This document shows positions 712 through 58,470 of a stretch of 64,000 nucleotides of DNA, piece by piece. Under the pieces are notes generated by a model. That model did not search any database and was not told where the DNA came from. It saw only the letters and a program-made list of their open reading frames with translations. The number at the start of each line of letters is the position of its first letter. Position 1 is the first letter of the stretch. This DNA is from Limisphaerales bacterium (GTDB taxonomy: Bacteria; Verrucomicrobiota; Verrucomicrobiia; Limisphaerales; SXQI01). The position numbers and the translations under genes are program-made. The stretch is taken from assembly GCA_044226545.1 (NCBI GenBank), contig JBGAGW010000010.1:73706-137705 (forward strand). The letters run 5' to 3'.

Positions 712-2138
712 GCCCGCGCTCCTTCTTTCACCGCTGGGATGATCGTCGTATCCTCATCGACACCCACACTGATGCTCAATCGCTGCATGCGGTAACGCAA
801 AGCGTGACGGCTGATCTTCAACTGCTCGGCCGTTTTGGTCAGGCTATAATGATTCTGTTCCAACAAGTTTGTAATGAGTTCCTTCTCAAAATTAGCCACT
901 GATTCATCCAGTGACAAAGCTCCATTCAATACAGGGGCTTCCCCTTTTCGCAAGCGCGTTTCGGTGTGAAAATCAGGCAGGCTGGTGGTCTGGATTTCAT
1001 CGGTCGCCTCCAAAATGACCGCGCGTTCAATGACATTGCGCAGCTCACGAACATTTCCGGGCCAATGATGCGACAGTAATTGCTGTTGCGCGTGTTTGGA
1101 GATGCCCTTGATCGCCTTGTTCATCGAAACGGCGAAAAACCTCAGAAAATGCTCGGCCAACAGTAACACGTCATTCCCACGCTCCCGCAAGGCTGGGGGC
1201 CGAAACTGGACGACGTTCAGCCGATGATAAAGGTCCTCTCTAAACTGGTTCTGCCGAATCGCATCGATAATATCGCGATTGGTCGCGGCAATGAGACGAA
1301 CGTCCACTTTGAGTTCCTGGTTACCTCCGACACGAGTGAATGTCCCATCCTCCAGGAAGCGCAGAAGCTTCGCCTGAAGCGGGCGACTCATATCGCCGAT
1401 CTCATCCAGAAAAATAGTGCCTCCGTCCGCCTCTTCTACTCGACCGTGCTTCTGCCGAAGGGCACCCGTGAATGAACCCTTTTCGTGGCCGAAAAGCTCG
1501 CTTTCCAGAAGCAACTCCGGAATAGCCGCGCAGTTGATGCGCACATAATGTCCTTGCGACCGCCTGCTCAAGCTGTGAAGCGAGCCGGCGATCAGTTCCT
1601 TCCCTGTCCCGCTCTCTCCCAGGATCAAAACGGTTGCCTGGGTCGGTGCCACAGTCTGGATGAGTTGCTTCAACTCTTTCATCCGCGGTGACTCACCGAT
1701 GATTTGTTCCAGGCGGTACGCTTCGCCCGCTCGCGCCTTGAGTGCGGCGTTTTCAGTGAGAAGTTTGTGGCGTTCGGCGCAACGCGACACCGCGTGCAGC
1801 AACTCTTCCGGCGCAAACGGCTTCGCCAGATAATCGATCGCCCCCGCTTTAATCGCCTCGACCGCGAGCTTGGGCGTGGCGTAAGCCGTGATCATCAGGA
1901 CAGGCAGATTCGGATGCTTCGTTTTGACGTGACTGAGGAATTCATAACCGCTCATTCCACCCAGTCGGGCGTCCGTGATCACCATGAAGAATTCTTCCTG
2001 GCCAAGCACGCGCAGCGCTTCTTCCGCGGAGTCCACTGCGCGATACTGGTAGCCTTCTTCGCTCATGATCGTTTCGAGCGATAGACGCATGTTCTTCTCG
2101 TCGTCGATGACAAGTAATGGAGGCAGAGTGTTGGTCAT
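708..2138 (-). CDS. Sigma54-dependent NtrC-family response regulator (REC-AAA+-HTH)
   Basis: Receiver (VIDDE, ITDARL, YLAKPF), Walker [42 protein letters not shown]-terminal Fis-type HTH. Confidence 0.95.
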
Positions 2139-3586
2139 TTGCGTACGGTAAATACGGTCTTGGCAGGCAACCTTACAATAAAACAGGCTCCTTTGCCCGG
2201 CTCAGACTGCACCTCGACGGTGCCGTGGTAGAGTTCGGTGTTGTGTTTGACGATGGCCAGCCCCAAGCCGGTCCCCTTATCTTTCGTCGTAAAATAAGCT
2301 TCAAAAACCTTGCCGAGTTTTTCGCGCGGAATACCGGGACCATTGTCCTTAATCGTAACGACGACGGAATAATCATCGCCATACCGGGCGCCGACTTCAA
2401 TTTCCCCCTGGCCATTCATCGCTTCGCGCGCGTTCTGGAGAAGATTCACGAACGCTTCCGAAAGATGCCCACGTTGCGCGAGAATCGGAGGAAGGGCCGC
2501 GCCGTAATTCCGTTTGATCGCGACTTCGTATTTCGCGGCGGAAGGAAAGACCTGGTCAATCGCGCGATCCAGTTCCTCGGTTATGTCGAGCTTCTCGACC
2601 TGACCTTCGGAAAGGCGCGCGTATCCCATCAACTCGGTAATGATCCGGTCGGACCGCTCCACTTCCTCCCGAATAATGCGAATCTGCTGAGTAATCGTTT
2701 TCCCCTCTTTAACCGTTTTCTGTAGCGTGTACGCAGCATTGTTAATAATCCCGAGCGGGTTCTTCAGTTGATGCGCGATTTCAGCGGCCAGCCGTCCAGC
2801 GGCCTGAAGCTGTTCCTGGCGCAGATTATATTCCTGCGCTTCTTCATTGGCGCGCCGTTGTTTTTCCAGCAGCACCTGCACGCCGTAACAGCAAATCGTC
2901 ACCAACACCAGCAACAACAGCCGCAGTAAGAACGGTTCATTCCAGGGACTCGTCGCCCCCTCGAATTCAAAGCTCTTCCGCAACAACTCATCCTTCAGGT
3001 AAAACGAAATCTCCTTCTGCTGAACGACATAATCCGCCAGTCCGGCCAGCAAATACGAGGCGCTGACACCCAGATTCAGGGTTAATTGGCTCGCCGCACT
3101 TGGAATGCTGATCGTGTTACGTACGATCAGCACCAAAAACACCCAGTAAAGGTACGGGTTTTTGAATCCTTCCGTGACAAGGGTAAGGGCCGCCAGAAAA
3201 ATTGAATCCGAGAGACAGTTCGCAAACACGATCCGCTGGATCGCGCGAAACGAAAAATGACGCATACCGATCAGCAGCGTGGCGAACGCACCGTTCAGAA
3301 TGATGTAGCCGAGAAAGATCGGCGGAATGAACTGCAGCAATCGCTCCTGCGGCGCCACTCGCGGTCCGCCAGAAGTGATGACTTTGATCCAATTCGAAAG
3401 GAAAAAGTAATAGATAAGGACGCCCAGCACCGCCGCCTTCACCGGAAGGCCAACGTTGCGTTCGACCGTCCGAATCCGTGAGAGCTGGACATCCGGCGGC
3501 GGCGCGCGCAAATCCAGAAGCTTCGGGAGCTTCTTGATATTCTGCCACTGCAATAAACTGAGCCGCTTTTCGCTCACTGGGACCAC
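2135..3586 (-). CDS. Membrane sensor histidine kinase
   Basis: Multiple TM helices, H-box AHQLKNPL, NLLQNAREA, DNGPGI, FTTK, GTGLGL; 4-nt overlap with the regulator. Confidence 0.95.
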   Translation of the reverse strand: MVPVSEKRLSLLQWQNIKKLPKLLDLRAPPPDVQLSRIRTVERNVGLPVKAAVLGVLIYYFFLSNWIKVITSGGPRVAPQERLLQFIPPIFLGYIILNGAFATLLIGMRHFSFRAIQRIVFANCLSDSIFLAALTLVTEGFKNPYLYWVFLVLIVRNTISIPSAASQLTLNLGVSASYLLAGLADYVVQQKEISFYLKDELLRKSFEFEGATSPWNEPFLLRLLLLVLVTICCYGVQVLLEKQRRANEEAQEYNLRQEQLQAAGRLAAEIAHQLKNPLGIINNAAYTLQKTVKEGKTITQQIRIIREEVERSDRIITELMGYARLSEGQVEKLDITEELDRAIDQVFPSAAKYEVAIKRNYGAALPPILAQRGHLSEAFVNLLQNAREAMNGQGEIEVGARYGDDYSVVVTIKDNGPGIPREKLGKVFEAYFTTKDKGTGLGLAIVKHNTELYHGTVEVQSEPGKGACFIVRLPAKTVFTVRK

Positions 3587-3699
3587 CGTAACTGCCAGAT
3601 TAAAGCAATTCCAATGCCCGCTGGCACGATTTTTGTGTGCGAAAGCAAATCCAAAAGCTTGCCCTCCACCCGTCCACCCTCGATAAAGAGCTCTTTCGC

Positions 3700-4632
3700 A
3701 TGGAACAGCGCCTGTTGGGAAAGACTGGACTGAAACTGCCGATCCTCAGCTTTGGAGCCTCATCGCTTGGCCAGGAGTTTCGCTGTGTGACTGTCGATGA
3801 AGCACTTCGGTCGGTGCACGTGGCTCTGGATTGTGGTCTCAATTTCATCGACACCTCCCCGTTTTATGGCCGAGGCATGAGCGAAGTCCTGTTGGGAGTC
3901 GCGCTGCGTGGCCTTCCGCGAGATCGTTATCTGCTTTGCACTAAATTGGGTCGCTATGACTTGCAGCATTTCGACTTCAGCGCCAAACGCGTTGCGGAAA
4001 GCGTGGATGTTAGTCTGCATCGGCTCGGGACAGATCATCTGGATATCGTCCTCTGTCACGATATCGAATTTGTGAAAATGCAGCAGATCGTGGACGAAAC
4101 GATTCCTGCGCTGCGCAACGCGCAACAGGCCGGCAAGGTTCGATTCATCGGCTTCAGCGGTTATCCGCAGAAAATCTTTCGGTTCATCTGCGATCAAACG
4201 GATGTCGACTGCGTGTTGAGCTACAATCAATACACGTTGCAAAACACTCGTTTTGCCGATGAGACCGTTCCGTACTTGAAAAGCAAGGGTATCGGAGCAA
4301 TGAACGCCGGGCCGTTCAGCGCGCGTCTCTTGACGAACGCTTCCCTGCCCGCCTGGCTCAAAGAACCAGAAAAGGTCAAAGCCGCTGCCCGAGAGGCGGC
4401 CGCGCTTTGCGCGACGCGCGGATCGGACATCGCGAAATTGGCACTGCAATTCTCCTGCGCCAATCCCGACATCGCCACCACCATCGCGGGATCGGCGAAT
4501 CCCGACAATATTCGACGTTGGGCCCAATGGATCGCCGAACCGATCGACCAGGAGCTATTGAAGGATGTGCAAAAGATTTTTGCGCCCGTCAAAAATATCG
4601 GGCACGTCGAGGGATTGGCGGAGAATAACTGA
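3700..4632 (+). CDS. Aldo/keto reductase, L-galactose/D-threo-aldose dehydrogenase-like
   Basis: LSFGASSLG, GLNFIDTSPFYGRGMSE, LCTKLGRY, HDIEF, TTIAGSAN; start moved to ATG 3700. Confidence 0.9.
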   Translation: MEQRLLGKTGLKLPILSFGASSLGQEFRCVTVDEALRSVHVALDCGLNFIDTSPFYGRGMSEVLLGVALRGLPRDRYLLCTKLGRYDLQHFDFSAKRVAESVDVSLHRLGTDHLDIVLCHDIEFVKMQQIVDETIPALRNAQQAGKVRFIGFSGYPQKIFRFICDQTDVDCVLSYNQYTLQNTRFADETVPYLKSKGIGAMNAGPFSARLLTNASLPAWLKEPEKVKAAAREAAALCATRGSDIAKLALQFSCANPDIATTIAGSANPDNIRRWAQWIAEPIDQELLKDVQKIFAPVKNIGHVEGLAENN

Positions 4633-4677
4633 ACCCAAAGAGAGTAAGAGTAGGACTAGGATTACGAGTAGGATGAT

Positions 4678-5706
4678 ATGAAGGCCCTCCAGTTGGAAAA
4701 GCCCGAACATTGGCGTACTGTTGATATTCCGCATCCGGATTCGCCAGGGCCCGGAGAAGCTCTCGTGCGAGTTCATCGCATCGGCATTTGCGGCACCGAT
4801 ATTTCCGGTTATCTCGGAAAAATGCCCTTCTTCAGCTATCCACGAATTCCCGGGCACGAACTGGGTGTCGAGGTTCTTGAGATCGGCAACGAAGTGCGCA
4901 ATATCAAGGCTGGCGACCGCTGCTCGGTCGAACCTTACATGAACTGTCAGCGTTGCTATGCCTGTGAGCAAGGCCACACCAATTGCTGCGAAAACCTCAA
5001 GGTGCTCGGCGTGATGGTGGACGGTGGCATGACCGAAAAAATGGTTCTGCCGGCGCGCAAGCTCCATCCGGCCAACAAGCTAACACCGGATCAATGCGCC
5101 CTGGTCGAAACCCTCGCGATCGGCTGTCATGCCGTCAATCGCGGCAATCCGAAAGCCGGAGAAAGCGTGCTCGTGATTGGCGCGGGCCCGATTGGCCTTT
5201 CTGTCTTGGAGTTCGTGAAACTCTCCGGAGCACGAGCCATCGTCATGGACATGGTCGAAAAGCGCCTTGAATTCTGCCGCACTAAAATGGGCATCCAACA
5301 CACCGTGCTTTCCAAAGGCGACGGAACCGAAATCGACAAGCTCAGAGAGGTCACCGATGGGCATCTGCCGGACCTCGTGATCGATGCGACCGGCAGCAAC
5401 AAATCGATGAGCAACGCACTGGGTTATTGCGCATTCGCCGGCCGGCTGGTTTATGTCGGCATCACGCAACAGGAAATCTCCTTCCTGCATGCACCGGTGA
5501 TGCATCGCAGGGAGCTAACGCTCCTCGCCTCGCGCAACGCTCTGCCTGCCGACTTCACGCGCATCATTCAGCTCATCGAAGAAGGCAGGATCGATACGCG
5601 ACCCTGGATCACCCACCGCAGCGGTTTTTCGGATCTCGTAAAAAACTTCCCCGCCTATACCAAACCGGAAACGGGAGTAATCAAAGCGATTGTAACGGTT
5701 GAGTGA
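4678..5706 (+). CDS. Zinc-binding alcohol dehydrogenase, L-galactonate/L-gulonate dehydrogenase-like
   Basis: GICGTD, GHELG, CQRCYACEQGHTNCC structural zinc site, GAGPIG. Confidence 0.9.
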   Translation: MKALQLEKPEHWRTVDIPHPDSPGPGEALVRVHRIGICGTDISGYLGKMPFFSYPRIPGHELGVEVLEIGNEVRNIKAGDRCSVEPYMNCQRCYACEQGHTNCCENLKVLGVMVDGGMTEKMVLPARKLHPANKLTPDQCALVETLAIGCHAVNRGNPKAGESVLVIGAGPIGLSVLEFVKLSGARAIVMDMVEKRLEFCRTKMGIQHTVLSKGDGTEIDKLREVTDGHLPDLVIDATGSNKSMSNALGYCAFAGRLVYVGITQQEISFLHAPVMHRRELTLLASRNALPADFTRIIQLIEEGRIDTRPWITHRSGFSDLVKNFPAYTKPETGVIKAIVTVE

Positions 5707-5712
5707 GCGTGG

Positions 5713-5779
5713 GGAGCGCGCGACATTCTTGTCCGCAAGTCGTCCGGCCAATGCATGCGGACAAAAACATTCGTGCTGC
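5713..5779. repeat. REP-like palindromic element, GGAGCGCGGACATTCTTGTCCGC family, copy 1
   Basis: Left arm ggagcgcgcgacattcttgtccgca, imperfect right arm tgcggacaaaaacattcgtgctgc; second copy at 16961-17067. Confidence 0.65.
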
Positions 5780-5934
5780 ATTACCCGCGTTTCGAAGGAG
5801 TGACCTTGCCGCGCTTCCGCTTGCCCGCCAGTGCTTCGGTAACTTTCTTCGCGTAATGCGGGAGAGCCTTACCTCGTTCCCGAGCTTGCTGTTCCTTCTT
5901 TGCTTCGTCGCGAGGGTTTTTAGACATCGTAATC

Positions 5935-6897
5935 CTATTGCGTCTCGCCGCGCGTCACTCGCATGAAGACTTCTTCGAGCCCGAGCTCATCTTCCCACAA
6001 ACCTGTCACTTTCGCCCCGCCCCGCACCAGTGTATCCGCGAGAAAGCTTGGATCGGTGTCATGGCTGGTGAGAGTGACTTTCATTTGGCCATCCACGCGC
6101 GAAATCTCGGCGACCTCCGGCCGCGACTTCAGCATTTGCATCGCCTGATCGGTATCGGTCGCAACCTTCACCCAATAAATCTGGCCTCCTGCCATCTGAT
6201 CCCGCACGCCTTGAACCGGGCCGCTGTAGATCAGCTTGCCCTTCTCGATGATCGCGACCCGATTACACAACGTCTGCAACTCGCTCAAGATGTGAGAGGA
6301 AATGATGATCGTTTTGCCCATGCGCTGCAGTTCTTGCAGAATCGCCATCATTTCAATGCGGGCCCGGGGGTCGAGACCTGAGGCCGGTTCGTCCAGGAGC
6401 AGCAATTGCGGATCATGAATCAGAACGCGAGCAAGACCGAGACGCTGCTGCATGCCGCGGCTGAGTGCGCCAATCAGCGAGCCCTTCTTTTCACTCAGAC
6501 CGACCAATTCGAGCACGTCGTTTACCGTCTTTTCGCGCTGAACCGCAGGAATTTTGTAACAGGCTCCGAAGAAATCGAGGTACTCCGTCACCTCCATGTC
6601 CTTGTACACACCAAAGAAATCCGGCATGTAACCAATAATGTGCCGCACCCGATCAGCATCGTGTACCACGTCATGGCCGAGCACTTCAGCTTTCCCGCCG
6701 GACGGCGCAAGAAACGTCGCCAAAATTCGCAAGGTCGTCGTTTTGCCGGCACCGTTCGACCCAATAAAACCAAACAGGTCGCCGCGGTTCACGGTGAGCG
6801 TCAGTGAATTGAGCGCGATCATGCTGCCGTAAACGCGGGTGAGGGCAGTCGTCTGGACGGCAGGTACAGAGTTCTCGACGGGAGTTTCTATGGCCAT
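5935..6897 (-). CDS. ABC transporter ATP-binding protein
   Basis: Walker A GSNGAGKTT, signature LSRGMQQR, Walker B LLLDEP, SSHIL; start at MAIETP because the ORF-track extension lies in a repeat. Confidence 0.95.
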   Translation of the reverse strand: MAIETPVENSVPAVQTTALTRVYGSMIALNSLTLTVNRGDLFGFIGSNGAGKTTTLRILATFLAPSGGKAEVLGHDVVHDADRVRHIIGYMPDFFGVYKDMEVTEYLDFFGACYKIPAVQREKTVNDVLELVGLSEKKGSLIGALSRGMQQRLGLARVLIHDPQLLLLDEPASGLDPRARIEMMAILQELQRMGKTIIISSHILSELQTLCNRVAIIEKGKLIYSGPVQGVRDQMAGGQIYWVKVATDTDQAMQMLKSRPEVAEISRVDGQMKVTLTSHDTDPSFLADTLVRGGAKVTGLWEDELGLEEVFMRVTRGETQ

Positions 6898-6914
6898 GGG
6901 AATATTGGATTTAG

Positions 6915-6988
6915 ACCACGAATGGACACGAATAGACACCCATTCCAACAGCCATGTCTAGTCGTGTGCATTCGTGTTTATTCGTGGT
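6915..6988. repeat. CACGAAT-type inverted-repeat element (MITE/REP), short copy
   Basis: Arms accacgaatggacacgaat (6915-6933) and attcgtgtttattcgtggt (6970-6988), 17/19 complementary. Confidence 0.8.
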
Positions 6989-9153
6989 TAATGAATCGGC
7001 ACAGTCAGCCGCAACATCGTGTCCTGCTTGAAACGCGGTGGCGAAAAATTGTTCATCTTCTCCGTGAGACTGAAGCCCGGCAGCCACGCGAAGACCACCG
7101 CATCACCCCGTTCCACCTGCGATGCAATATCCAGCCCGGGCGGTGAAACGAATGACCGACCCGGTTGTTGCTCGTCCAGATACGAAATGAGTGACGCAGT
7201 CACCGCGGTAACCGGCCGGTTTTCGAGCCGGCCCCCGGCAGTATCACCCATCACGTTCCGGCGAATATCGACCGCACGTTGAAAATACGCACCGTTTTCC
7301 CGGACGAATTGACGAACGTCGACCCCCTTCGATGGCTCAAGCGGGATGATCTTGCGAACGTTTGGCTGAATCGTCTCGACCTCGTAAATATTCTTCCCTG
7401 CCACCACCCGAAGTTCAGAAAGCGGACGATTCAAAAGATTTTCGATTTCCAACTGGTAGCCATTCCCCGACGTCGTGACTGACGCGATAAAGGGCGTGTC
7501 GTTGGTTTTGTACCATTCGCTCGAATAAAGAAGGCTCGTCCAGACCGGCACGAAAACCTCCGCTTTATACGTGTTCCCTTGCTGGATAATTCTGAGCCGA
7601 TCGTTCTTGGGGCCGCCGCGAAAATCCGCGAGCTCCGGACGAAGGGCGGCATGTCCGGGTTGGCCGTTAATCGGATAGGTCGCGTTACCCGACGAATAGA
7701 TGGAGATGTAGGTCTGGCCTCGCAGATCAACTTTGTCACCGCGCGGAAGAACATCGACAAGATTAAGTTCGTTCCACTCGGTCTCACCGGCGCGGAGTTT
7801 GTAACCGATAAAATAAATGAGCAGTGAGAAAAGGACCACGTACGTCGGAAACGTTATCCACGTGAGCATTTGTTTGCCGATCTTCTTCAGCCACCATTGA
7901 TCAAAAGGACCGATTACAACAAGGTAGACCACCAGCAACAGTAGCAACCAGGTGACCGGCAATTTCTTGATCTGACGGCTGTCGATCAGCGCGCCGAAAA
8001 TTCCATCCACGCTCACCCCGCCCCATCCCACGTTTTCCGCCGTCGAGAAGTAATCAGCCGGAATACCGGCGAGCCGCGCCCAAAAGTAATGGCGGCCTTT
8101 CCAACTGCGGAATGGCTCGCGCTCCGGGCTGAAGGTGAGCAACGTCACCTTGCCCCGTCCCCGCGGCGCTTCCACCGCGAGAGGCTGGCCCTCTACCGAG
8201 ATGAGCGCTTTTCCGTCTTTCACTTTCCCGGTAGCGACTGCCATCTCAGCATTGTTGAAGCTGGAATCCACCGGCAGATCGCCGTAGCTACCACCGAGGA
8301 CCTGAGCGTTCCGGCGTCCGCGCCGCGTTTGCGGATTCTCAGAGGGGCGTCCTTGAACATAACCGATTATCTCCTGGTCCACCTTCATGGTCTTCGCATC
8401 GGAAAGGTCCATCGGAACGAATTGCTTGAGCCATGGCGTCCCCGCGAAATCGCCTGCTTGTTCGGTGGCAACAACGAGATGCCCGCCCGCACGAACCCAA
8501 GCGAGCAACGCCGTGACTTGATTCACCTTCAGGTCCGGAGCCTTTTCGGAACTGAGATAGAAAGCGTTCAAACCCTCCAACGTGATCGGATTGTCCGGAA
8601 ACTGATCGAGCGTCATCCGCGCGACCTCCGGCTTGAGGTCTCCCCGGTTATTCTTCATTTCGGGAAACACCGGACTGCCACCGAAAGTTCGAGGCAAAGC
8701 GCCCATGATCGTGCTTTCAAGCGCGATGACCTTTGTCGTGGCAATCCGGGGATCAAGCCCGCGAATCGGTTTACCGCCGCTGTCCAAGAGTTTGCCCGTC
8801 CACGTTTCCTGCCCCCCGAAACGGCTGGCGCTGGAAGCGAACATCGGAATAACGATTCGTTTCCGAGTGTTGGTGGGCAGTTCCACCGGAACCTGGCGGA
8901 CCTGCTCCCCGCCAAATTGACCGCCCGAGACCTCGATGATCGCGTTAAATGAAGGTCCGTCGTTATTGATTTCGCAGGTAATGGGGAACCAGGCCGCCTC
9001 GTGAATGGTCGATTCGTAGCCCGGGAGAACGTCAAACTGAATCGCCCCGCGCGCCGGGGAAAGCAGCGCCAGCAAGCCGACCAGCCAGATTGCCATTCTC
9101 ATTCGGTTCGTAAGCAGATGCACTTTTCTAGGTTCCAACCCGCTGACATGCAA
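6988..9153 (-). CDS. Membrane-anchored ABC-associated protein with extracytoplasmic and amidotransferase-like domains
   Basis: Signal-like N-terminus, central TM hairpin (LPVTWLLLLLVVYLVVIGP...FSLLIYFIG), co-directional with the ABC ATPase. Confidence 0.75.
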   Translation of the reverse strand: MHVSGLEPRKVHLLTNRMRMAIWLVGLLALLSPARGAIQFDVLPGYESTIHEAAWFPITCEINNDGPSFNAIIEVSGGQFGGEQVRQVPVELPTNTRKRIVIPMFASSASRFGGQETWTGKLLDSGGKPIRGLDPRIATTKVIALESTIMGALPRTFGGSPVFPEMKNNRGDLKPEVARMTLDQFPDNPITLEGLNAFYLSSEKAPDLKVNQVTALLAWVRAGGHLVVATEQAGDFAGTPWLKQFVPMDLSDAKTMKVDQEIIGYVQGRPSENPQTRRGRRNAQVLGGSYGDLPVDSSFNNAEMAVATGKVKDGKALISVEGQPLAVEAPRGRGKVTLLTFSPEREPFRSWKGRHYFWARLAGIPADYFSTAENVGWGGVSVDGIFGALIDSRQIKKLPVTWLLLLLVVYLVVIGPFDQWWLKKIGKQMLTWITFPTYVVLFSLLIYFIGYKLRAGETEWNELNLVDVLPRGDKVDLRGQTYISIYSSGNATYPINGQPGHAALRPELADFRGGPKNDRLRIIQQGNTYKAEVFVPVWTSLLYSSEWYKTNDTPFIASVTTSGNGYQLEIENLLNRPLSELRVVAGKNIYEVETIQPNVRKIIPLEPSKGVDVRQFVRENGAYFQRAVDIRRNVMGDTAGGRLENRPVTAVTASLISYLDEQQPGRSFVSPPGLDIASQVERGDAVVFAWLPGFSLTEKMNNFSPPRFKQDTMLRLTVPIH

Positions 9154-50164: not shown

Positions 50165-51639
50165 ATGACACCGACCGATTCTGACAATCATCAGACCGTC
50201 ATCAAAAATTTCATCCAACGCTGGACCGCTGCCGACGCCTCCGAACGTAGCAACAGCCAGCTCTTCCTTACCGAAATCTGCGATCTACTCGGCGTTCCTC
50301 GCCCCGAACCCACTTTCAAGAACGGTTACGCCTTCGAATTCACCGTCCAGGACCACGGCGATTCCGGTGACACCTCCGAGCGTCGCATCGATCTCTACAA
50401 GCGAAACTGCTTCGTCCTCGAATCCAAACAATTCCAGGCCAAACAAGAGGCCCTCAACCCCGTCGCCCAGGCCGTCGAAGACAGCGGCGTCACCCTCCGA
50501 AAAAAGCGCTCCGGCCCCATCCGCGGCACCGATCGCTACGACGACGCCATGATCCGCGCCCGCGGCCAGGCCGAACGTTACATTCGCGCTCTCCCCGACA
50601 CTGAGAAAAATCCTCCATTCCTCATCGTGGTCGATGTCGGCGACACCCTCGAACTCTACGCCGACTTTTCTCAGGCCGGTAAAGCCTATCTCCCATTTCC
50701 CGACCCGCGCCATTCCCGCATCCGCCTCGCTGATCTCGCGCACGAAAAAGTCCGCGACCAACTCCGACTCATCTGGACCGATCCCCTCAGCCTCGATCCC
50801 GCTCGCAAATCCGCCGAAGTCACCACCGAAATCGCCCGCCACCTCGCCGAACTCGCCAAATCCCTCGAAGCCGCCGGACACGCCCCGCAAAAAGTCGCCG
50901 AATTCCTCAGCCGCTGCCTCTTCTGCATGTTCGCCGAAGATGTCGGCCTCCTCCCCAAAAGCAGTTTCACCGACCTCCTCAAATCCATCGAACCCGAAGG
51001 CTTCCAGCCCATGCTCCAGCAGCTCTTCCGGGAAATGAACACCGGCACCGGCTACTCCACCATCCTCCGCAAAAAACTCCTCCAATTTAACGGCGGCCTT
51101 TTCGCCGATGACACCGTCCTCCCCGTCAATCGCGAGCAACTCATCCTTCTCCAACTCGCCTCCCTCCAGGACTGGCGCAACGTCGAGCCCGCCATCTTCG
51201 GCACTCTCCTCGAACCCGCCCTCAACCCCCACGAACGCCACAAACTCGGCGCCCACTACACCCCGCGCGCCTACGTCGAACGCCTCGTCCTCCCCACCGT
51301 TATCGAGCCACTCCGCGCCGAGTGGGAATCGTCCGCACCGCCGCCCTCACCCACGCTCGCACCGGCGCGCTCGACAAAGCCACCAAAGAAATCCGCGACT
51401 GGCACCACAAACTCTGCCAGGTCAAAGTCCTCGACCCCGCCTGCGGCTCCGGCAATTTCCTCTACGTCACCCTCGAACACATGAAACGCCTCGAAGGCGA
51501 AGTCTTCCTCGAACTCGAAAAATACGGCGATCGCGAGCTCACCTTCGAAATGCAGCACTTCAGCGTCGATCCCCACCAATTCCTCGGCATCGAACTCAAC
51601 CCGCGCGCCGCGCCCGCGAATATGGAACTCGTGTTCTGA
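50165..51639 (+). pseudogene. MmeI-like type IIL/IIG restriction-modification enzyme, N-terminal fragment, frameshifted and truncated
   Basis: [27 protein letters not shown] nuclease, FNGGLF, GAHYTPR; frameshift near 51330 (gaa tc gtc cgc acc), second frame carries motif [13 protein letters not shown] and GIELNPRAA, then stops; no NPPF motif IV. Confidence 0.88.
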
Positions 51640-51648
51640 TCGAACGCG

Positions 51649-53130
51649 TTAAACCGTCTGTTTGCGAACGAAGACCAACATATCGGAAATTTCCTCGCAG
51701 CGCGTCCAATTAGTGTCTGGCGAGGTCAACTGTAAAGGGCGTAGTTGAGCCGCAAGACCAGAATCGGTCACGAATTCTTGGATGGCACCCGGACTCATTT
51801 GACCGAGGGTCGCAAGCGCCCAATCACGGGCGACCGAAGAACCCTGCGCATAGAGAGCAATTAACCGCGGTGCTGAAATCGCAGGCGGAATAGTTCGGGC
51901 AAGAACGAATGAAGCGGACGCGCGTTTTCTCTGAGAGGCTTCTGCGTCTGCAAGAACTGCGACCAGTTCCTGAGCTTCGGATGATCCGGCGTCTGAGCCG
52001 AATGCGCAAACCGCATGAACGAGCTCGTCTTCGTCTTGCACATCGAGAAAGGCCAAAAGACTGTCGTAGGCACGAAGGCCATCCTTGCCGAGGCCCCAGA
52101 CAGCCGCCTGGCGCGCCTCGTCGTGGAGCAGAGCATCGGACTGAGCGTATTGCGTGAGCAAATCGGCACAGCGGCCGGCGAGCGGCGTTCCGCGTAGTTC
52201 TGACAGCGCGAGTATTGCCTCCATGCGTAAGTAAGGAATTCGCGGCCGATCGACCGCGGCTGTAAGTAACGTGACGCCCTGTTCGTTGCCGAGCCGCACG
52301 AGAGAGGCAGCCGCTTCAAGTGCAACGCGATCCTCCGGGTCATTTTCAGCAATGTTCCTGATAACAGGAAAGTCAGCAGGGGTACCAACTACTCCGAGAG
52401 CTTTCACCGCAACATAGCGATCCACGGGCGACGGCGAACTGATAAGGTTGCGCGGGTTCCACTGGCCGTCCTGAGAATTGGGAAAAGCGGCCTTTCGGAG
52501 CGGAATTCCGGCAAGAAACTGCGTGCCTCCGAAAAAGCGTTGTCCTCCTGCAAAGTAGGCAGTCTTACCGCGAAGCGTGTAGGTCTGATTTCGTCCGTTT
52601 TCCAGGCGAGTTGCGATTCGAGCATCATCAACGGCTTGTACGACGCCACTTGCACTTGCAACGATGGACGGCCACTCCCGGTCCCGCTCCGCTCCCTCGC
52701 TGGCAGATTTTGCAGGACCAAGGCGGCTGTTAGCTTCTGTGATTTGCAGGTCCTCGACCCAAAAGAGCTCAGCGTTGTCGGCTGCCTGCAACGTTGCGTC
52801 ATCTGCTTCGCGGACCAACACGAAGGCAATCATGTCGCGAGGTGCAAGCCCCGTGTTCCACCGTCGATCAGGATTCGAAGGAGCGTCGCTCATTTTAATG
52901 GTCAGAACGCTCTTCGCTCTGACTTCAACGCGGAGACCTGTGCGGACGCAAAGCAGATCGGGCAACCTCAGACGTTTCACTTTAGTTGACCAGATCTTGT
53001 TGCTTCGGGAGTAGCGCTCCAATTCAATGGGCTGCAAACCGGCATCGGACATAAGCGTGCAGACTCGGCGCACGCCGAGGGCACCCATGGTGAGAAACCT
53101 CAGAAAACTGGAATCAATCTTTAATCCCAC
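51649..53130 (-). CDS. Putative endonuclease: N-terminal PD-(D/E)xK-like domain plus C-terminal HEAT/PBS-lyase repeats
   Basis: P57-D58...E69-V-R-A-K73; repeats such as DRYVAVKALG, ALEAAASL, RMEAILAL, RQAAVWGLG, RDWALATLG; occupies the R position of a C-R / M divergon. Confidence 0.6.
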   Translation of the reverse strand: MGLKIDSSFLRFLTMGALGVRRVCTLMSDAGLQPIELERYSRSNKIWSTKVKRLRLPDLLCVRTGLRVEVRAKSVLTIKMSDAPSNPDRRWNTGLAPRDMIAFVLVREADDATLQAADNAELFWVEDLQITEANSRLGPAKSASEGAERDREWPSIVASASGVVQAVDDARIATRLENGRNQTYTLRGKTAYFAGGQRFFGGTQFLAGIPLRKAAFPNSQDGQWNPRNLISSPSPVDRYVAVKALGVVGTPADFPVIRNIAENDPEDRVALEAAASLVRLGNEQGVTLLTAAVDRPRIPYLRMEAILALSELRGTPLAGRCADLLTQYAQSDALLHDEARQAAVWGLGKDGLRAYDSLLAFLDVQDEDELVHAVCAFGSDAGSSEAQELVAVLADAEASQRKRASASFVLARTIPPAISAPRLIALYAQGSSVARDWALATLGQMSPGAIQEFVTDSGLAAQLRPLQLTSPDTNWTRCEEISDMLVFVRKQTV

Positions 53131-53377
53131 GGTGGATTTCTTTCAACGTTTTGGCGCGCGAAGGGACGCCCGGGACAAGTTTTGCGATAGTGGTTCCGAG
53201 CGCTCTCGCGAGCTTTTCCATGTTGTCGATCGAAATGTTTCGCTCCCCGCGCTCGACGCCGCCGACGTAATTCCGATGAAGGCCAGAAAGCTCCGCGAGA
53301 CCTTCCTGTGAAAGGCCTTTTGCGACTCGGACTGTTCGGACGTTTCGAGAGAAGAGTTGTCTTGCGCTCGAAGACAC
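53114..53377 (-). CDS. XRE-family HTH controller (C protein-like)
   Basis: FSRNVRTVRVAKGLSQEGLAELSGLHRNYVGGVERGERNISIDNMEKLARAL; GTG start inferred; 17-nt overlap with the downstream gene. Confidence 0.9.
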   Translation of the reverse strand: MSSSARQLFSRNVRTVRVAKGLSQEGLAELSGLHRNYVGGVERGERNISIDNMEKLARALGTTIAKLVPGVPSRAKTLKEIHRGIKD

Positions 53378-53420
53378 GCGAGAATCTTGTAGAAGATTGT
53401 GGAGAATTACTCTACACACT
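53378..53420. promoter_or_regulatory. Divergent C/M control region with two adjacent palindromes (candidate C-boxes)
   Basis: aatctt-gtag-aagatt (53383-53398, perfect) and gtggagaa-tta-ctctacac (53399-53417, 6/8). Confidence 0.55.
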
Positions 53421-54437
53421 ATGAGTGTGATTCCTGAACGACCTGTTTACACGAGTGAGCTTGGTGCAGCCTATTGCGGAGACTCCGTGAAGCTGCTGGC
53501 ACAGCTTCCGGACGAGAGCGTAAACCTGGTGATGACCTCGCCGCCTTTTGCGCTCCAGCGTGAGAAGGAGTACTTGGACCGGTCCGCAAACAAAACGCAA
53601 GATGACTACGTGGAGTGGCTGGCTCGCTTTGGGGAAGTGGTCTTAAGGAAGCTGCGCCCAGACGGATCTTTTGTGATCGATATTGGCGGGGCGTACGTGA
53701 AAGGAGCGCCAGAAAGAGCACTTTATCCGTTTCGGGTGCTGCTGAAATTCTGCGACGAGCTTGGGTTTAAACTGGCGCAGGATTTCTACTGGCACAATCC
53801 CGCGAAGCTGCCCTCTCCTATCGAGTGGGTGAATAAGCGGAAGCTGCGGACGAAGGACTCCGTTAACACCGTTTGGTGGTTTTCGAAAAATGCGTGGCCG
53901 AAGGCGGATGTGAGAAAAGTTTTGGCGCCATACAGTGATAGAATGAAAAAACTCCTACAAGATCCAGCCGCCTTCTATACGCCAGCGAAGCGGCCAAGCG
54001 GCCATGATATCGCCGATACTTTTGGCAAAGACAATGGCGGGGCAATTCCGCCAAACCTGCTGCAAATCCCTAACACCGAAAGTAACGGTCCTTATTTAAG
54101 GGCGTGTAAAGTAGTCGGGGCACACCAACACCCGGCGCGTTTCCCGGCAAAATTGCCAGAGTTCTTTATCCGTTTCCTGACGGAGCCCGACGATCTAGTT
54201 ATCGATATTTTCGCTGGCTCGAACACTACGGGAGCCGTAGCGGAGGCGGAAAGGAGAAGATGGCTCGCATTTGACGTGAGCTTGGATTACTTGGCGGCTT
54301 CCGCCTTTCGCTTTACTGATCCCGATCTTCCAGAGTCCGAAATGACCGAGATGTATGGTGCGATGCTCAGGGGCGAGACTGTCGATACGAGAGCTTTTGT
54401 GCGACAAGGTGTGTTTCTAGAAATGCATGAGGAATAA
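53421..54437 (+). CDS. Beta-class N4-cytosine DNA methyltransferase, M.PvuII-like
   Basis: VMTSPPFAL (motif IV), LPSPIEWVNKRK, VLAPYSDRMKKL, RPSGHDI, HPARFPAKLPEFFIR, DIFAGSNTTG (motif I); these blocks match M.PvuII as I remember it. Confidence 0.92.
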   Translation: MSVIPERPVYTSELGAAYCGDSVKLLAQLPDESVNLVMTSPPFALQREKEYLDRSANKTQDDYVEWLARFGEVVLRKLRPDGSFVIDIGGAYVKGAPERALYPFRVLLKFCDELGFKLAQDFYWHNPAKLPSPIEWVNKRKLRTKDSVNTVWWFSKNAWPKADVRKVLAPYSDRMKKLLQDPAAFYTPAKRPSGHDIADTFGKDNGGAIPPNLLQIPNTESNGPYLRACKVVGAHQHPARFPAKLPEFFIRFLTEPDDLVIDIFAGSNTTGAVAEAERRRWLAFDVSLDYLAASAFRFTDPDLPESEMTEMYGAMLRGETVDTRAFVRQGVFLEMHEE

Positions 54438-54444
54438 TGCACCG

Positions 54445-55173
54445 CGACCCTGCCCGGCTTGCACCGGCGCCCAACGCGAACGAATCCGCAAAATCGCCGA
54501 AGAACTCGACGCCCACTCCAAATGCATCCAGGCGCAACATGACGGCCTCACCCTCACCGGCATGTACAATGTCCTCGCGCAACTCCGCGCGAACCAACCC
54601 CTCACCCCAAAAGAAAAAGACATCCACGACAAAGGCCTCGTCTACGTCCTCAAACAACTCCACGACGATCTCGACGCCGCTGTCTTCGACGCCTACGGCT
54701 GGCCGCCCACGCTAACCGACGCCGAAATCCTTGAACGCCTCGTCGCGCTCAACGCCGAACGCGCCCGCGAAGAAGCCGCCGGTCACATCCGCTGGCTCCG
54801 CCCCGACTACCAGATTCCGCTCTTCCAAGAAACCCCGGTTGGGACGCGTTCCACCGCGTCCCAAACTTCCGAACCAACGTCCGAACTCGACCTGAAAGCG
54901 GAGTCCACCGAGAAGTCCAATAAGAAAACCAAACCAGCAAACCGCAGTCCGAAAGCCTCAATTGCTAAGCACCCCTGGCCTACCACCCTCCCCGACCGCA
55001 CCAAAGCCCTTCTCGCCCTCATCCAGGACCACGGCTCCAAACCGTTCACCGCCCAGGAAATCGCCCGCTCTTTCACCCGCGCCCAAACCGCACAGGTCAC
55101 CGAAATCCTCGAAACCCTCTGCGCCATCGGCAAAGCCCGTAAAGGAAGCAAACCGGGAACTTATCTATCATAG
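54445..55173 (+). pseudogene. MmeI-like enzyme, orphaned C-terminal fragment
   Basis: QRERIRKIAEELDAH...GLTLTGMYNVL...LHDDLDAAVFDAYGWP...EILERLVALNAERAREEAAGHIRWLRPDYQ; no credible own start. Confidence 0.85.
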
Positions 55174-57352: not shown

Positions 57353-57898
57353 GTGACTGTAGCCAGCGACAGAGGTGAGTTAGAGGAACTGCTCGGTCTC
57401 CGCGACCTCGTCATCGACGAAAGACGGCGTGTTGATCGACTCCTGGACCGGATCGAGCGGGTCTTGCAGCGAAAGCGAGCCAATACTGGCAGGCGCGGAA
57501 AGGCGCAGACTTTGGCAGCTCGTCGGAGCCCACTGGACGATCTGAAAAACGTGATCGGAGTTACGAAGGACCTTCGATTGCCGAACGGCAAGCTTTCTGT
57601 CGAACGAATGGCCAAACTCTACGGAGTTAGTCTGAGTCAATTCGGAATCTGGCTTGGACGGTCCAAGCAAGCGTTGAGCAAAACGCCGGACGCAGACTCG
57701 TTGCAGAATGAATTGGGTTATTTTGAACGGGTCGCCCGCCTCCGCGCAGTTACGGCGAATGACGCAGAGTTCCGCAAATGGTTGCGCATGCCGAATGACA
57801 CGCTGGGCAGCCGAACTGCCCTGGAGCTTATCGCGCGAGGTCAGTGGCAGGAGGTGGCCGACAAGGTGGACGATATTCTGACGGGAATGCCGAGCTAA
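57353..57898 (+). CDS. Xre/MbcA/ParS-like antitoxin (DUF2384-type C-terminus)
   Basis: HTH-like LSVERMAKLYGVSLSQFGIWLG, C-terminal FRKWLRMPNDTLGSRTALELI; TAATG coupling to the RES gene. Confidence 0.85.
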   Translation: MTVASDRGELEELLGLRDLVIDERRRVDRLLDRIERVLQRKRANTGRRGKAQTLAARRSPLDDLKNVIGVTKDLRLPNGKLSVERMAKLYGVSLSQFGIWLGRSKQALSKTPDADSLQNELGYFERVARLRAVTANDAEFRKWLRMPNDTLGSRTALELIARGQWQEVADKVDDILTGMPS

Positions 57899-58470
57899 TG
57901 CCCGACTTCTCGCAGAAACTGGCGGAAGCACCCACAGTCGTTTTCAAACGCACGCTGGTCCGAGCCGTCGCTGCGGCCGCTTTGTTTCCAAACAGCAAAT
58001 GCGCATCGGCGGATTTTCTTTTCACGTCCGGAAAGGAAAACCGATTCAATATGGCCGGCACCTCATGTCTGTATTTCTCAGAATCCGAAGCCACCGCTCT
58101 GGCTGAATATCGGCGGCAATTTCAAGGCCTGGAATACGGAACCAAACAGCCAGTAACATTGTTCTTTGCGGACGTTTGCTTGCAACGTGTGCTTGATCTG
58201 GAAGATGCACAGACCCGTGACTTGCTGGAGATAACCGAGAGAGATCTCGAGAGCAATTGGGGCTATGGATCGCCACCCGCGATCACGCAACGGCTCGGTG
58301 AGGCAGTCGCGGCACAGCGGAAAATTTCCGCGATCCGTTATCCGTCCGTAGCCGCCCACAAAAACCGAATCGCCGGATTCAACGTTGTGATTTACAAAGC
58401 AGGCGTGCGTGCGCCGGATTTTGTCCACATTCTCGGCCCCACGAAGAAACCGATTCAAAAACTACCGTGA
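57898..58470 (+). CDS. RES-domain toxin (MbcT/ParT-like)
   Basis: GKENRFN, CLYFSESEATALAE, VLDL, TQRLGEA, AIRYPSVA, NVVIY; start at ATG 57898. Confidence 0.88.
   Translation: MPDFSQKLAEAPTVVFKRTLVRAVAAAALFPNSKCASADFLFTSGKENRFNMAGTSCLYFSESEATALAEYRRQFQGLEYGTKQPVTLFFADVCLQRVLDLEDAQTRDLLEITERDLESNWGYGSPPAITQRLGEAVAAQRKISAIRYPSVAAHKNRIAGFNVVIYKAGVRAPDFVHILGPTKKPIQKLP

Follow-up and report, generated by a model that had tools for sequence, protein, structure and literature searches.

A candidate CAGCTG restriction endonuclease combining an Hjc-like nuclease fold, a β-barrel and a HEAT solenoid in a PvuII-type cassette

A three-gene cassette at positions 51649-54437 of the window (the whole 64,000-nt stretch of DNA that was analysed) encodes an orthologue of the DNA methyltransferase (MTase) M.PvuII, a controller (C) protein with a C-box and, in the position of the restriction gene (the R slot), a 493-aa protein. 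This last protein is likely to be a new type II restriction endonuclease (REase) for CAGCTG that is not PvuII-like. A real CAGCTG restriction enzyme is indicated because the site is depleted and because MTases have been swapped beside the nuclease gene. Together, the three genes would constitute a C-controlled type II restriction-modification (R-M) cassette for CAGCTG.

Organization of the cassette

The genes and the operator of the cassette are as follows.

51649..53130, minus strand: R-slot gene, candidate CAGCTG restriction endonuclease (open reading frame of 493 aa; AF2 model; >900 homologues; MTase-linked)
53114..53377, minus strand: C (controller) gene, 87 aa from GTG 53377 (matches to HTH_3, PADLOC Control_protein and C.AhdI/C.BclI)
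53402..53429, minus strand: predicted C-box operator, CACACTCATAGTGTG-T-AGAGTAATTCTC on the minus strand
53421..54437, plus strand: β-class N4-cytosine DNA methyltransferase, M.PvuII orthologue (SPPF motif; PDB 1boo; PADLOC; N6_N4_Mtase)

The initial annotation described a PvuII-type layout with M divergent from C-R, and all of its features are present in the sequence, including the 43-bp gap between M and C (taking C from GTG 53377 and M from ATG 53421) and the 17-nt overlap between C and R (53114-53130). In C-controlled systems the C/R overlap falls within a ±20-nt rule (PMC2997769), which the 17-nt overlap fits. The longest form of the C open reading frame (53114-53419, minus strand) would begin within the C-box and would overlap the longest M reading frame, which starts at TTG 53397; the GTG start of C is kept in the homologous locus L001. 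For R, the gene-caller model is 479 aa long (P0001) and drops 14 N-terminal residues. Since these residues are conserved across phyla, with K4 and F9 invariant, the 493-aa start is the right one. A scan of the C/M intergenic region for promoters and terminators gave zero matches. Available sequencing runs consist of metagenome DNA, with no RNA among them.

The MTase aligns nearly end to end with M.PvuII (PDB 1boo; residues 14-333 against 6-321, E 4.5e-147), in line with the initial annotation, and carries the motifs SPPF and FAGSNTTG. It also matches PADLOC MTase_II PDLC03323 (E 1.6e-162) and Pfam N6_N4_Mtase. Given its near-identity to M.PvuII, it would produce N4-methylcytosine in CAGCTG.

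The C protein matches C.AhdI (E 3e-15), C.BclI (E 7e-14), PADLOC Control_protein (E 4e-22) and HTH_3 (E 4e-16). The predicted C-box overlaps the M start codon. Its one clear palindrome, CACT-N3-AGTG (53417-53427), is separated by a TGT spacer from a second, degenerate box, and the operator aligns in register with the GACT-N3-AGTC-TGT-AGAC-N3/4-AGT(C) sequence that precedes C in ~60 homologous loci. By the PvuII paradigm and with this conserved operator, the C protein would bind the C-box across the M start codon and turn on the C-R operon after a delay.

The cassette stands in place of the middle of an MmeI-like type IIG R-M gene, the remnants of which lie on either side.

50165..51639, plus strand: 5' remnant (model positions 1-471), with MmeI_N, MmeI_hel and MmeI_Mtase (Pfam) and PADLOC PDLC03627
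54427..55173, plus strand: 3' remnant of the same type IIG gene (model positions 920-1134), PADLOC PDLC03627, E 8e-65

The 5' remnant aligns to PDLC03627 over positions 4-377 and 378-471, is frameshifted near 51330, and its end lies 9 nt away from the stop codon of R. The 3' remnant starts at most ~10 nt from where M stops, and the nucleotide homology of the cassette to L001 ends at 54440. A toxin-antitoxin pair of the RES-Xre type is found at a distance of 3 kb.

Domains of the R-slot protein

The AF2 model of the R-slot protein (pLDDT 92, pTM 0.87) has three domains, in the order Hjc-like PD-(D/E)xK, barrel-sandwich-hybrid β-barrel and acidic HEAT solenoid.

52696..53130, minus strand: residues 1-145, N-terminal helix and PD-(D/E)xK-like core (Foldseek, Hjc 2wcw)
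52456..52695, minus strand: residues 146-225, invariant SEGAE (E148) followed by the barrel-sandwich-hybrid β-barrel (Foldseek)
51649..52455, minus strand: residues 226-493 and the stop codon, HEAT/PBS-lyase-type α-solenoid (HEAT_2; net charge −10)

The protein was described as unfamiliar in the initial annotation, and it does lie outside every named family: no Pfam, NCBIfam or PADLOC model covers the whole protein or the N-domain, the HEAT part alone matching HEAT_2. Sequence searches with the N-domain returned nothing meaningful from Pfam (each of 28 members, E up to 10) and zero matches from the PDB. In databases, members of the family are labelled only “HEAT repeat protein”.

Because the HEAT repeats dominated the results of full-length Foldseek searches, the N-terminal 225 residues were given a model and a search of their own. 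The N-domain (residues ~1-140) then matched Hjc 2wcw (prob 0.99, TMt 0.46-0.52, E about 6e-3). An αβββαβ core is present in the AF2 model (pLDDT 89-92), with moderate support from a predicted structure and modest TM-scores. Within it, D58 opens one strand and E69-x-R/K71-x-K73 lies on the following one; P57-D58 and E69-V-R71-A-K73 read exactly as had been claimed. The key residues of the domain are E36/E38, D58, E69, R71 (K in some homologues) and K73. D58, E69 and K73 are invariant in sets of 25 and 28 sequences from many phyla, and E36/E38 vary little or not at all across phyla. Position 71 admits only R or K, and most members have Arg there, at the canonical Lys position. These residues (E36/E38, D58, E69, R/K71 and K73) form a candidate active site, and DNA may be contacted by the basic loop N44-R55, which is highly conserved. 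The N-domain is the best-conserved portion of the protein (69% mean identity). Taken together, the Hjc match and the invariant acidic and basic residues bear out the nuclease fold suggested earlier for this domain.

R.PvuII is indeed small, as the initial annotation states (157 aa in the PDB chains). Homology between it and the N-domain was considered and rejected, hhalign against true R.PvuII homologues giving a probability of 0.3%. The residue numbering of R.PvuII (D58/E68/K70) resembles that of the R-slot protein (D58/E69/R71), yet hhalign rejects homology.

The β-barrel (residues ~150-215) is a third domain, absent from the initial annotation. Foldseek aligns it to the RNA polymerase β subunit over 76 columns with ~30% identity (prob 1.00), and to phage RNAP β and peptidase M23 barrels with an rmsd of 1.1-1.6 Å. 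Restriction enzymes are not known to carry a barrel-sandwich hybrid placed between nuclease and HEAT repeats.

The HEAT/PBS-lyase repeats ascribed to the C-terminal ~270 aa were recovered by Pfam HEAT_2 (E 4.5e-13, residues 229-310 and beyond) and by matches to alphaRep designs and CpcE/F; in the AF2 model residues 235-490 form a tandem-repeat solenoid of ~16 helices. The domain is acidic, with a median net charge of −11 in the family and −10 in this protein, which argues against the HEAT repeats as a DNA-specificity module. The β-barrel and the HEAT solenoid recur throughout as fixed components of the enzyme and are unlikely to read DNA; tentatively, they most likely serve as a dimerisation or positioning scaffold, or else as an autoinhibitory or regulatory module.

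Linkage to methyltransferases

The nuclease-HEAT family comprises 421 representative clusters (>400 at 50% identity) from many bacterial phyla, and its architecture is fixed, all full-length members being ~485-500 aa. Among 79 loci surveyed, a DNA MTase is adjacent in all 75 with enough flank, the other four being contig edges or an IS-flanked remnant, and a C gene lies directly upstream in 73 of the 79. The MTase linkage occurs in three gene orders, and the survey revealed no further conserved neighbour. Co-occurrence with an MTase, and nearly always with C, which the initial annotation proposed to check, is thus borne out. The MTase is either a PvuII-like (SPPF) enzyme or, in most members, a ~590-aa DPPF enzyme, a partner that the initial annotation does not mention. 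On the R tree the class of MTase has changed at least 5-6 times. Roughly a dozen R genes carry a frameshift or are split by multi-kb insertions, and R genes are often disrupted where M remains intact. Searches of plasmid and phage collections by tblastn found no nuclease-HEAT homologue, and a literature search on HEAT-repeat restriction enzymes and CAGCTG methylomes found nothing relevant.

These data bear on two alternatives to a restriction endonuclease. The R-slot protein could have a nuclease-like fold that has degenerated and serve the MTase as a HEAT-repeat partner, regulatory or structural, for example by targeting or modulating methylation. The Arg at the canonical Lys position in most members, the modest fold match and the absence of a sequence family assignment would be consistent with such a role. 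However, the (near-)invariance of D58, E69, K73 and E36/E38 across phyla, the restriction of position 71 to R or K and the strong conservation of the N-domain all argue for a functional nuclease, pairing with two unrelated MTase architectures is hard to square with a specific MTase partner, and the frequent disruption of R beside an intact M also speaks against this role, leaving a non-nuclease function barely credible.

The second alternative is a toxin or abortive-infection effector that acts independently of DNA-site methylation; C would then serve as its antitoxin or repressor, and the HEAT repeats would sense phage proteins. XRE-HTH proteins also act as antitoxins, the C protein has weak matches to HipB/HigA-type antitoxin models of NCBIfam, and the neighbouring RES-Xre pair can be counted on the same side. 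Repeat solenoids are sensors in other defence proteins. The C protein fits R-M controller models far better than antitoxin ones, however, and has a canonical C-box; the linkage to a DNA MTase extends to every locus with enough flank and to all three gene orders; and the CAGCTG depletion described below would be left unexplained. Pfam, NCBIfam and PADLOC scans and the AF2 model show no NTPase or signalling domain. An abortive-infection role had been raised in the initial annotation; with an NTPase/sensor module absent and MTase linkage total, nothing emerged in its support, and the toxin reading is very improbable.

Depletion of CAGCTG

If the R-slot protein is a CAGCTG restriction endonuclease, it is a candidate cause of CAGCTG avoidance. 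The host genome contains 239 CAGCTG sites where 1242 are expected (O/E 0.19), the lowest ratio among the 64 palindromic hexamers (the next is 0.61), and lacks an R.PvuII homologue. Among 31 genomes of the order, the median density of CAGCTG is 12 per Mb in the five that encode a PvuII-like MTase and 77 per Mb in the remainder (Mann-Whitney p 1e-4). The lowest of the order, G016, has 55 CAGCTG sites in 8.6 Mb, and encodes a nuclease-HEAT homologue as its sole R candidate. Within the order, sites were compared per Mb because GTCGAC, an imperfect yardstick, is erratic there (7 to 2489 sites).

Against that same yardstick, three genomes with the DPPF-MTase variant and without R.PvuII are also depleted: Chondromyces apiculatus (CAGCTG 166 in 11.6 Mb versus GTCGAC 9233), Bradyrhizobium STM 3562 (579 versus 4731) and Pseudogemmobacter (177 versus 1541). 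In the pooled flanks of 51 DPPF-MTase loci without R.PvuII, CAGCTG has an O/E of 0.32 and ranks first of 64, although per-locus hexamer statistics are biased downward in short sequences (pooled control, CAGCTG O/E 0.50); the whole-genome counts are therefore the main evidence for depletion. Sphingomonas gilva, which has both systems, is hardly depleted (CAGCTG 1797 versus GTCGAC 2469), and some non-carriers in the host's order are also depleted, at 15-26 CAGCTG per Mb. The depletion is correlative, and other or past CAGCTG systems may underlie it.

A further possibility is that CAGCTG systems use the nuclease-HEAT protein as an accessory or second nuclease and that it is not their sequence-specific endonuclease. 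It might, for example, process or degrade DNA after the primary cut, or act only with another factor; at loci without R.PvuII, the enzyme making the primary cut would be encoded elsewhere or have been lost. Three actinobacterial operons (L075, L076 and L078) speak for this possibility: an intact R.PvuII homologue lies between C and the nuclease-HEAT gene, and catalytic residues are kept in both nucleases. R.PvuII homologues also occur within a few kb in L018 and L038. Against it, about 70 nuclease-HEAT loci have no second nuclease candidate and no further conserved neighbour, and R.PvuII homologues are absent throughout six genomes (host, G016, Chondromyces, Bradyrhizobium, Occultella and Pseudogemmobacter) that are all nonetheless CAGCTG-depleted. 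C-control and a C/R overlap are, moreover, the signature of a toxic primary REase gene. An accessory role is accordingly unlikely.

Proposed mode of action

As a restriction endonuclease, the 493-aa protein would cut unmethylated CAGCTG with its Hjc-like N-terminal domain, as suggested by the fold, the invariant residues, the gene context and the genome-wide avoidance of the site. Since one nuclease family is protected by either an m4C-type (SPPF) or an m6A-type (DPPF) MTase, methylation of the site at either position probably suffices to prevent cleavage.

The enzyme might also be regulated, with the acidic HEAT solenoid and the β-barrel acting as an intramolecular DNA mimic or gate that keeps the basic nuclease off DNA until unmethylated CAGCTG or a phage-derived trigger displaces it. 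This elaboration is speculative and rather unlikely. If true, it would add a kind of REase control that has not been described among type II enzymes, and it would explain both the tolerance of two chemically different methylations and the coexistence with R.PvuII in one operon.

If the protein is a CAGCTG-specific endonuclease, a widespread family (>400 clusters at 50% identity) joins the type II restriction enzymes, with an architecture (Hjc-like nuclease, barrel-sandwich hybrid and HEAT solenoid) not described for them. The cassette would exemplify non-homologous replacement, with an unrelated R gene inside an otherwise conserved PvuII-type M/C cassette, and one nuclease family would be served by two MTases, m4C-type and m6A-type. 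The family is a candidate cause of extreme CAGCTG avoidance in large genomes such as those of Chondromyces apiculatus and Dactylosporangium roseum, and may provide an isoschizomer of PvuII that differs in its sensitivity to methylation.

Comparison with known systems

The cassette shares with the PvuII system the divergent M and C-R operon, an MTase orthologous to M.PvuII, a C protein of the R-M controller family, a GACT-N3-AGTC-type C-box, a C/R overlap within ±20 nt (PMC2997769) and, putatively, the CAGCTG target. It differs in its R gene, which is unrelated to R.PvuII (hhalign prob 0.3%) and encodes a protein three times longer with three domains, and most members of the nuclease-HEAT family differ further in having a ~590-aa DPPF MTase.

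Archaeal Holliday junction resolvases of the Hjc type are the top structural match of the nuclease domain and have E...D...E-x-K on equivalent strands. Sequence similarity to Hjc is undetectable, however, and the R-slot family has Arg at the Lys position in most members, an additional invariant K73, a fusion to a β-barrel and a HEAT solenoid, and a context of R-M, not recombination. The barrel (residues ~150-215) superposes on the barrel-sandwich hybrids of the RNA polymerase β subunit and peptidase M23 (68-76 columns, 1-5 Å, ~30% identity), but here it is an isolated module between the nuclease and the HEAT array. The C-terminal 270 residues match HEAT/PBS-lyase proteins (alphaRep designs, CpcE/F lyase and YibA) in sequence and structure; those proteins have no nuclease domain or R-M link, whereas the solenoid of the R-slot protein is acidic and nuclease-fused. 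Unlike STAND/Avs-type and other sensor-effector proteins of abortive infection, the R-slot protein has no NTPase or signalling module between its repeats and its putative effector domain, as judged from Pfam, NCBIfam and PADLOC scans and the AF2 model.

Organization and setting of the cassette

The gene layout proposed in the initial annotation, a DNA methyltransferase (MTase) divergent from a controller (C) and a gene in the restriction (R) slot, is borne out by the ORF coordinates, with a 17-nt C/R overlap and a 43-bp gap between the C and M start codons.

Features of the cassette and its surroundings
50165–51639: 5' part of an MmeI-like gene (model positions 1–471), with a frameshift near 51330, ending 9 nt from the R stop
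51649–53130, − strand: R-slot gene, ORF of 493 aa
53377 (GTG start) to 53114 (end), − strand: XRE/C gene
53402–53429, + strand: C-box predicted from sequence, overlapping the M ATG
53421 (ATG start) to 54437 (end), + strand: MTase gene
54427–55173: 3' part of the MmeI-like gene (model positions 920–1134), starting no more than ~10 nt from the M stop
57353–58470: overlapping antitoxin and toxin genes

The proposed match of the MTase to M.PvuII holds nearly end to end (PDB 1boo, E = 4.5e-147), and the protein also matches PADLOC MTase_II PDLC03323 (E = 1.6e-162). The small XRE protein matches restriction-modification controllers (PADLOC Control_protein, E = 4e-22; C.AhdI, 3e-15; C.BclI, 7e-14).

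The cassette lies within a gene for an MmeI-like type IIG restriction-methylase. The first part of that gene stops at model position ~471 and the second resumes at ~920, so the 2.8-kb M-C-R unit has taken the place of ~450 codons for the remainder of the MTase domain along with the target-recognition part. The nearest relative, a locus in UBA693, is 77% similar at the nucleotide level, and this similarity is limited to 51694–54440, which covers the three cassette genes and hardly any flank, and the cassette is absent from same-genus genomes. An Xre/MbcA/ParS-type antitoxin and RES-domain toxin pair 3 kb downstream (Pfam E = 4.5e-8 and 8.4e-17) suggests that the region is a small defence and addiction islet.

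A nuclease-HEAT family with apparently interchangeable methyltransferases

More than 900 homologues of the R-slot protein were retrieved by a word-indexed search (E ≤ 1e-3), all annotated as "hypothetical" or "HEAT repeat protein". A profile of the N-terminal domain alone recovered 421 representative clusters, and because all full-length matches are ~485–500 aa, the nuclease-HEAT architecture appears fixed. The neighbourhood survey covered 79 genome loci in Verrucomicrobiota, Pseudomonadota, Actinomycetota, Acidobacteriota, Planctomycetota, Chloroflexota, Myxococcota, Spirochaetota, Cyanobacteriota and other phyla. The initial annotation had posed, as a check, whether homologues are constantly linked to a PvuII-like MTase and a C gene. 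A C gene lies directly upstream in 73/79 loci and a DNA MTase is present in all 75 with enough flank (the other four being cut off at a contig edge or reduced to an IS-flanked remnant), but the MTase is PvuII-like (~340 aa, SPPF motif) in only 17–20 loci; in 60 it is a ~590-aa permuted N6_N4 enzyme with a DPPF motif and a zinc ribbon. In a maximum-likelihood phylogeny of the R proteins, the MTase class switches at least 5–6 times, suggesting that either MTase can stand in for the other as partner of a single nuclease family. When all neighbouring ORFs were clustered, no further recurrent partner emerged.

M is usually divergent from C-R, with a co-linear C-R-M order in one genome of the host's order (G016) and an M-R order lacking C at another locus (L055). 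About 12 of the nuclease-HEAT genes are frameshifted or broken by multi-kb insertions; such disruption is common for toxic restriction endonuclease genes. Four loci (L052, L053, L061 and L071) have either a multi-kb insertion in this gene or an N-terminal remnant between transposase-like ORFs, and the adjoining MTase ORF in L052 and L053 is still full-length.

The 17-nt C/R overlap falls within the ±20-nt rule described for C-controlled systems (PMC2997769). About 60 loci share GACT-N3-AGTC-TGT-AGAC-N3/4-AGT(C) upstream of C, conforming to the classical C-box pattern; the clade of the window has a variant, CACT-CAT-AGTG followed by TGT and a degenerate second box. MTases of both classes share a recurrent N-terminal peptide, L-Q/H-T-M-S (53397–53429 in the window, and many loci). 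Because conserved C-box DNA (…CAGACTATGAGT…) extends over the start of the MTase gene, a constraint on the DNA shows through here as conservation of the protein.

Genomic evidence for a probable CAGCTG specificity

CAGCTG, the PvuII site, is the scarcest palindromic hexamer relative to expectation in the 6.9-Mb host genome (239 observed against 1242 expected from a maximal-order Markov model; O/E 0.19, with the second lowest at 0.61). Two sites fall in the window, both outside the cassette. The host encodes a single PvuII-like MTase, and no homologue of R.PvuII was found in its genome. Among 31 genomes of the order, the five with a PvuII-like MTase have 6.4, 8.1, 12.2, 13.5 and 34.5 sites per Mb (median 12), against a median of 77 in the other 26 (Mann-Whitney p = 1e-4). 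The lowest density is in G016 (55 sites in 8.6 Mb), where a nuclease-HEAT homologue adjoins the MTase and R.PvuII was not found.

Isolates with DPPF MTases are also depleted, as judged against GTCGAC, an imperfect control, while Sphingomonas gilva is barely so (CAGCTG 1797, GTCGAC 2469). In the pooled flanks of 51 DPPF-type loci, CAGCTG has an O/E of 0.32 (rank 1 of 64), with the caveat that pooled non-carriers of the host's order give 0.50 (rank 3); some non-carriers are also depleted.

Site counts (CAGCTG; GTCGAC) and R.PvuII homologues
Chondromyces apiculatus (11.6 Mb): 166; 9233; none
Bradyrhizobium sp. STM 3562: 579; 4731; none
Pseudogemmobacter sonorensis: 177; 1541; none
Occultella glacieicola: 1515; 5981; none
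Dactylosporangium roseum (8.2 Mb): 200; 12624; present

In the D. roseum chromosome, the first CAGCTG sites listed crowd into ~339–360 kb, a pattern suggestive of an island acquired not long ago. Locus L018 of S. gilva (1924–7479) contains two systems placed back to back: a complete canonical PvuII set (R, C, M) and a DPPF-MTase/C/nuclease-HEAT set.

Three Actinomycetota loci, in two Dactylosporangium genomes and Cryobacterium breve, have the order C, R.PvuII-like gene, nuclease-HEAT gene, with a DPPF MTase opposite (L075, 5318–7452; L076, 5351–7452; L078, 5372–7482). The R.PvuII-like gene scores E = 3e-58 against PvuII chains in the PDB and keeps D/E/K intact, and its end abuts the nuclease-HEAT start. 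A single C-controlled operon would here carry two nucleases that are unrelated to each other. This arrangement links the nuclease-HEAT protein, along with the DPPF MTase, to PvuII specificity, and it also shows that the nuclease-HEAT member need not be the sole nuclease, and so keeps alive the reading, considered unlikely, that it is an accessory nuclease.

Taken together, site depletion and MTase swapping make action of the whole family on CAGCTG the simplest reading, in which case m4C-type or m6A-type methylation would each protect the site. The 493-aa protein itself is probably a CAGCTG restriction endonuclease. Context, fold, conservation and site avoidance lend good support to the suggestion of a restriction effector; the abortive-infection alternative offered with it is without support.

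A further M.PvuII-like MTase (53% identical) in a genome of the window's genus (G001; locus L118, 4441–6642) adjoins a 331-aa uncharacterised ORF with no Pfam or PADLOC match. That genome has just 77 CAGCTG sites in 6.3 Mb, and neither R.PvuII nor a nuclease-HEAT gene was found in it; the ORF may be a candidate third kind of CAGCTG nuclease.

Structure of the R-slot protein and comparison with known systems

According to the initial annotation, this architecture is not known from any characterized type II restriction endonuclease. Searches of Pfam, NCBIfam, PADLOC, the PDB and the literature turned up neither a named family nor a solved structure nor a publication for the R-slot protein. Its only Pfam match is HEAT_2, from residue ~229 onward, in agreement with the repeats recognized earlier; the first 225 residues have no Pfam match, and NCBIfam and PADLOC gave no meaningful match to the full protein.

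AlphaFold2 models of the full protein (25 homologues; pLDDT 92, pTM 0.87) and of residues 1–225 alone (pLDDT 89) were built, and three predicted parts emerge: 1–145, ~150–215 and 226–493. The two-part architecture described previously therefore stands for the N-terminal domain and the HEAT solenoid (226–493) but missed a barrel-sandwich-hybrid β-barrel at ~150–215. Residues 1–145 form a long helix and then a β-sheet. The proposed P57-D58...E69-V-R71-A-K73 motif is present, with D58 at the head of one strand and E69, R71 and K73 on the following strand. In 25 to 28 sequences drawn from many phyla, D58, E69 and K73 never vary, E36 and E38 do so rarely if at all, and position 71 is R or K without exception. 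The nuclease part is the best conserved (mean identity 69%, against 47% for HEAT), peaking at residues 41–80, which include a basic loop, N44-K45-x-W47-x-T49-K50-x-K52-R53-x-R55. Median net charge is +7 in the N-terminal half and −11 (range −26 to 0) in the HEAT half, whose acidity argues against HEAT as a DNA-reading surface.

No kinship of the N-terminal domain with R.PvuII was detected (hhalign probability 0.3%), in spite of similar residue numbers. The closest solved structure to residues 1–145 is the Holliday-junction resolvase Hjc (2wcw; probability 0.99, TMt 0.46–0.52), and this predicted resemblance to a PD-(D/E)xK fold upholds the proposed nuclease-like domain. Residues ~150–215 can be superposed on the corresponding module of RNA polymerase β (76 columns, ~30% identity) and on phage RNA polymerase β and M23 peptidase barrels (rmsd 1.1–1.6 Å). 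The cassette is rated as a type II restriction-modification system with a non-homologous, three-domain candidate restriction endonuclease.
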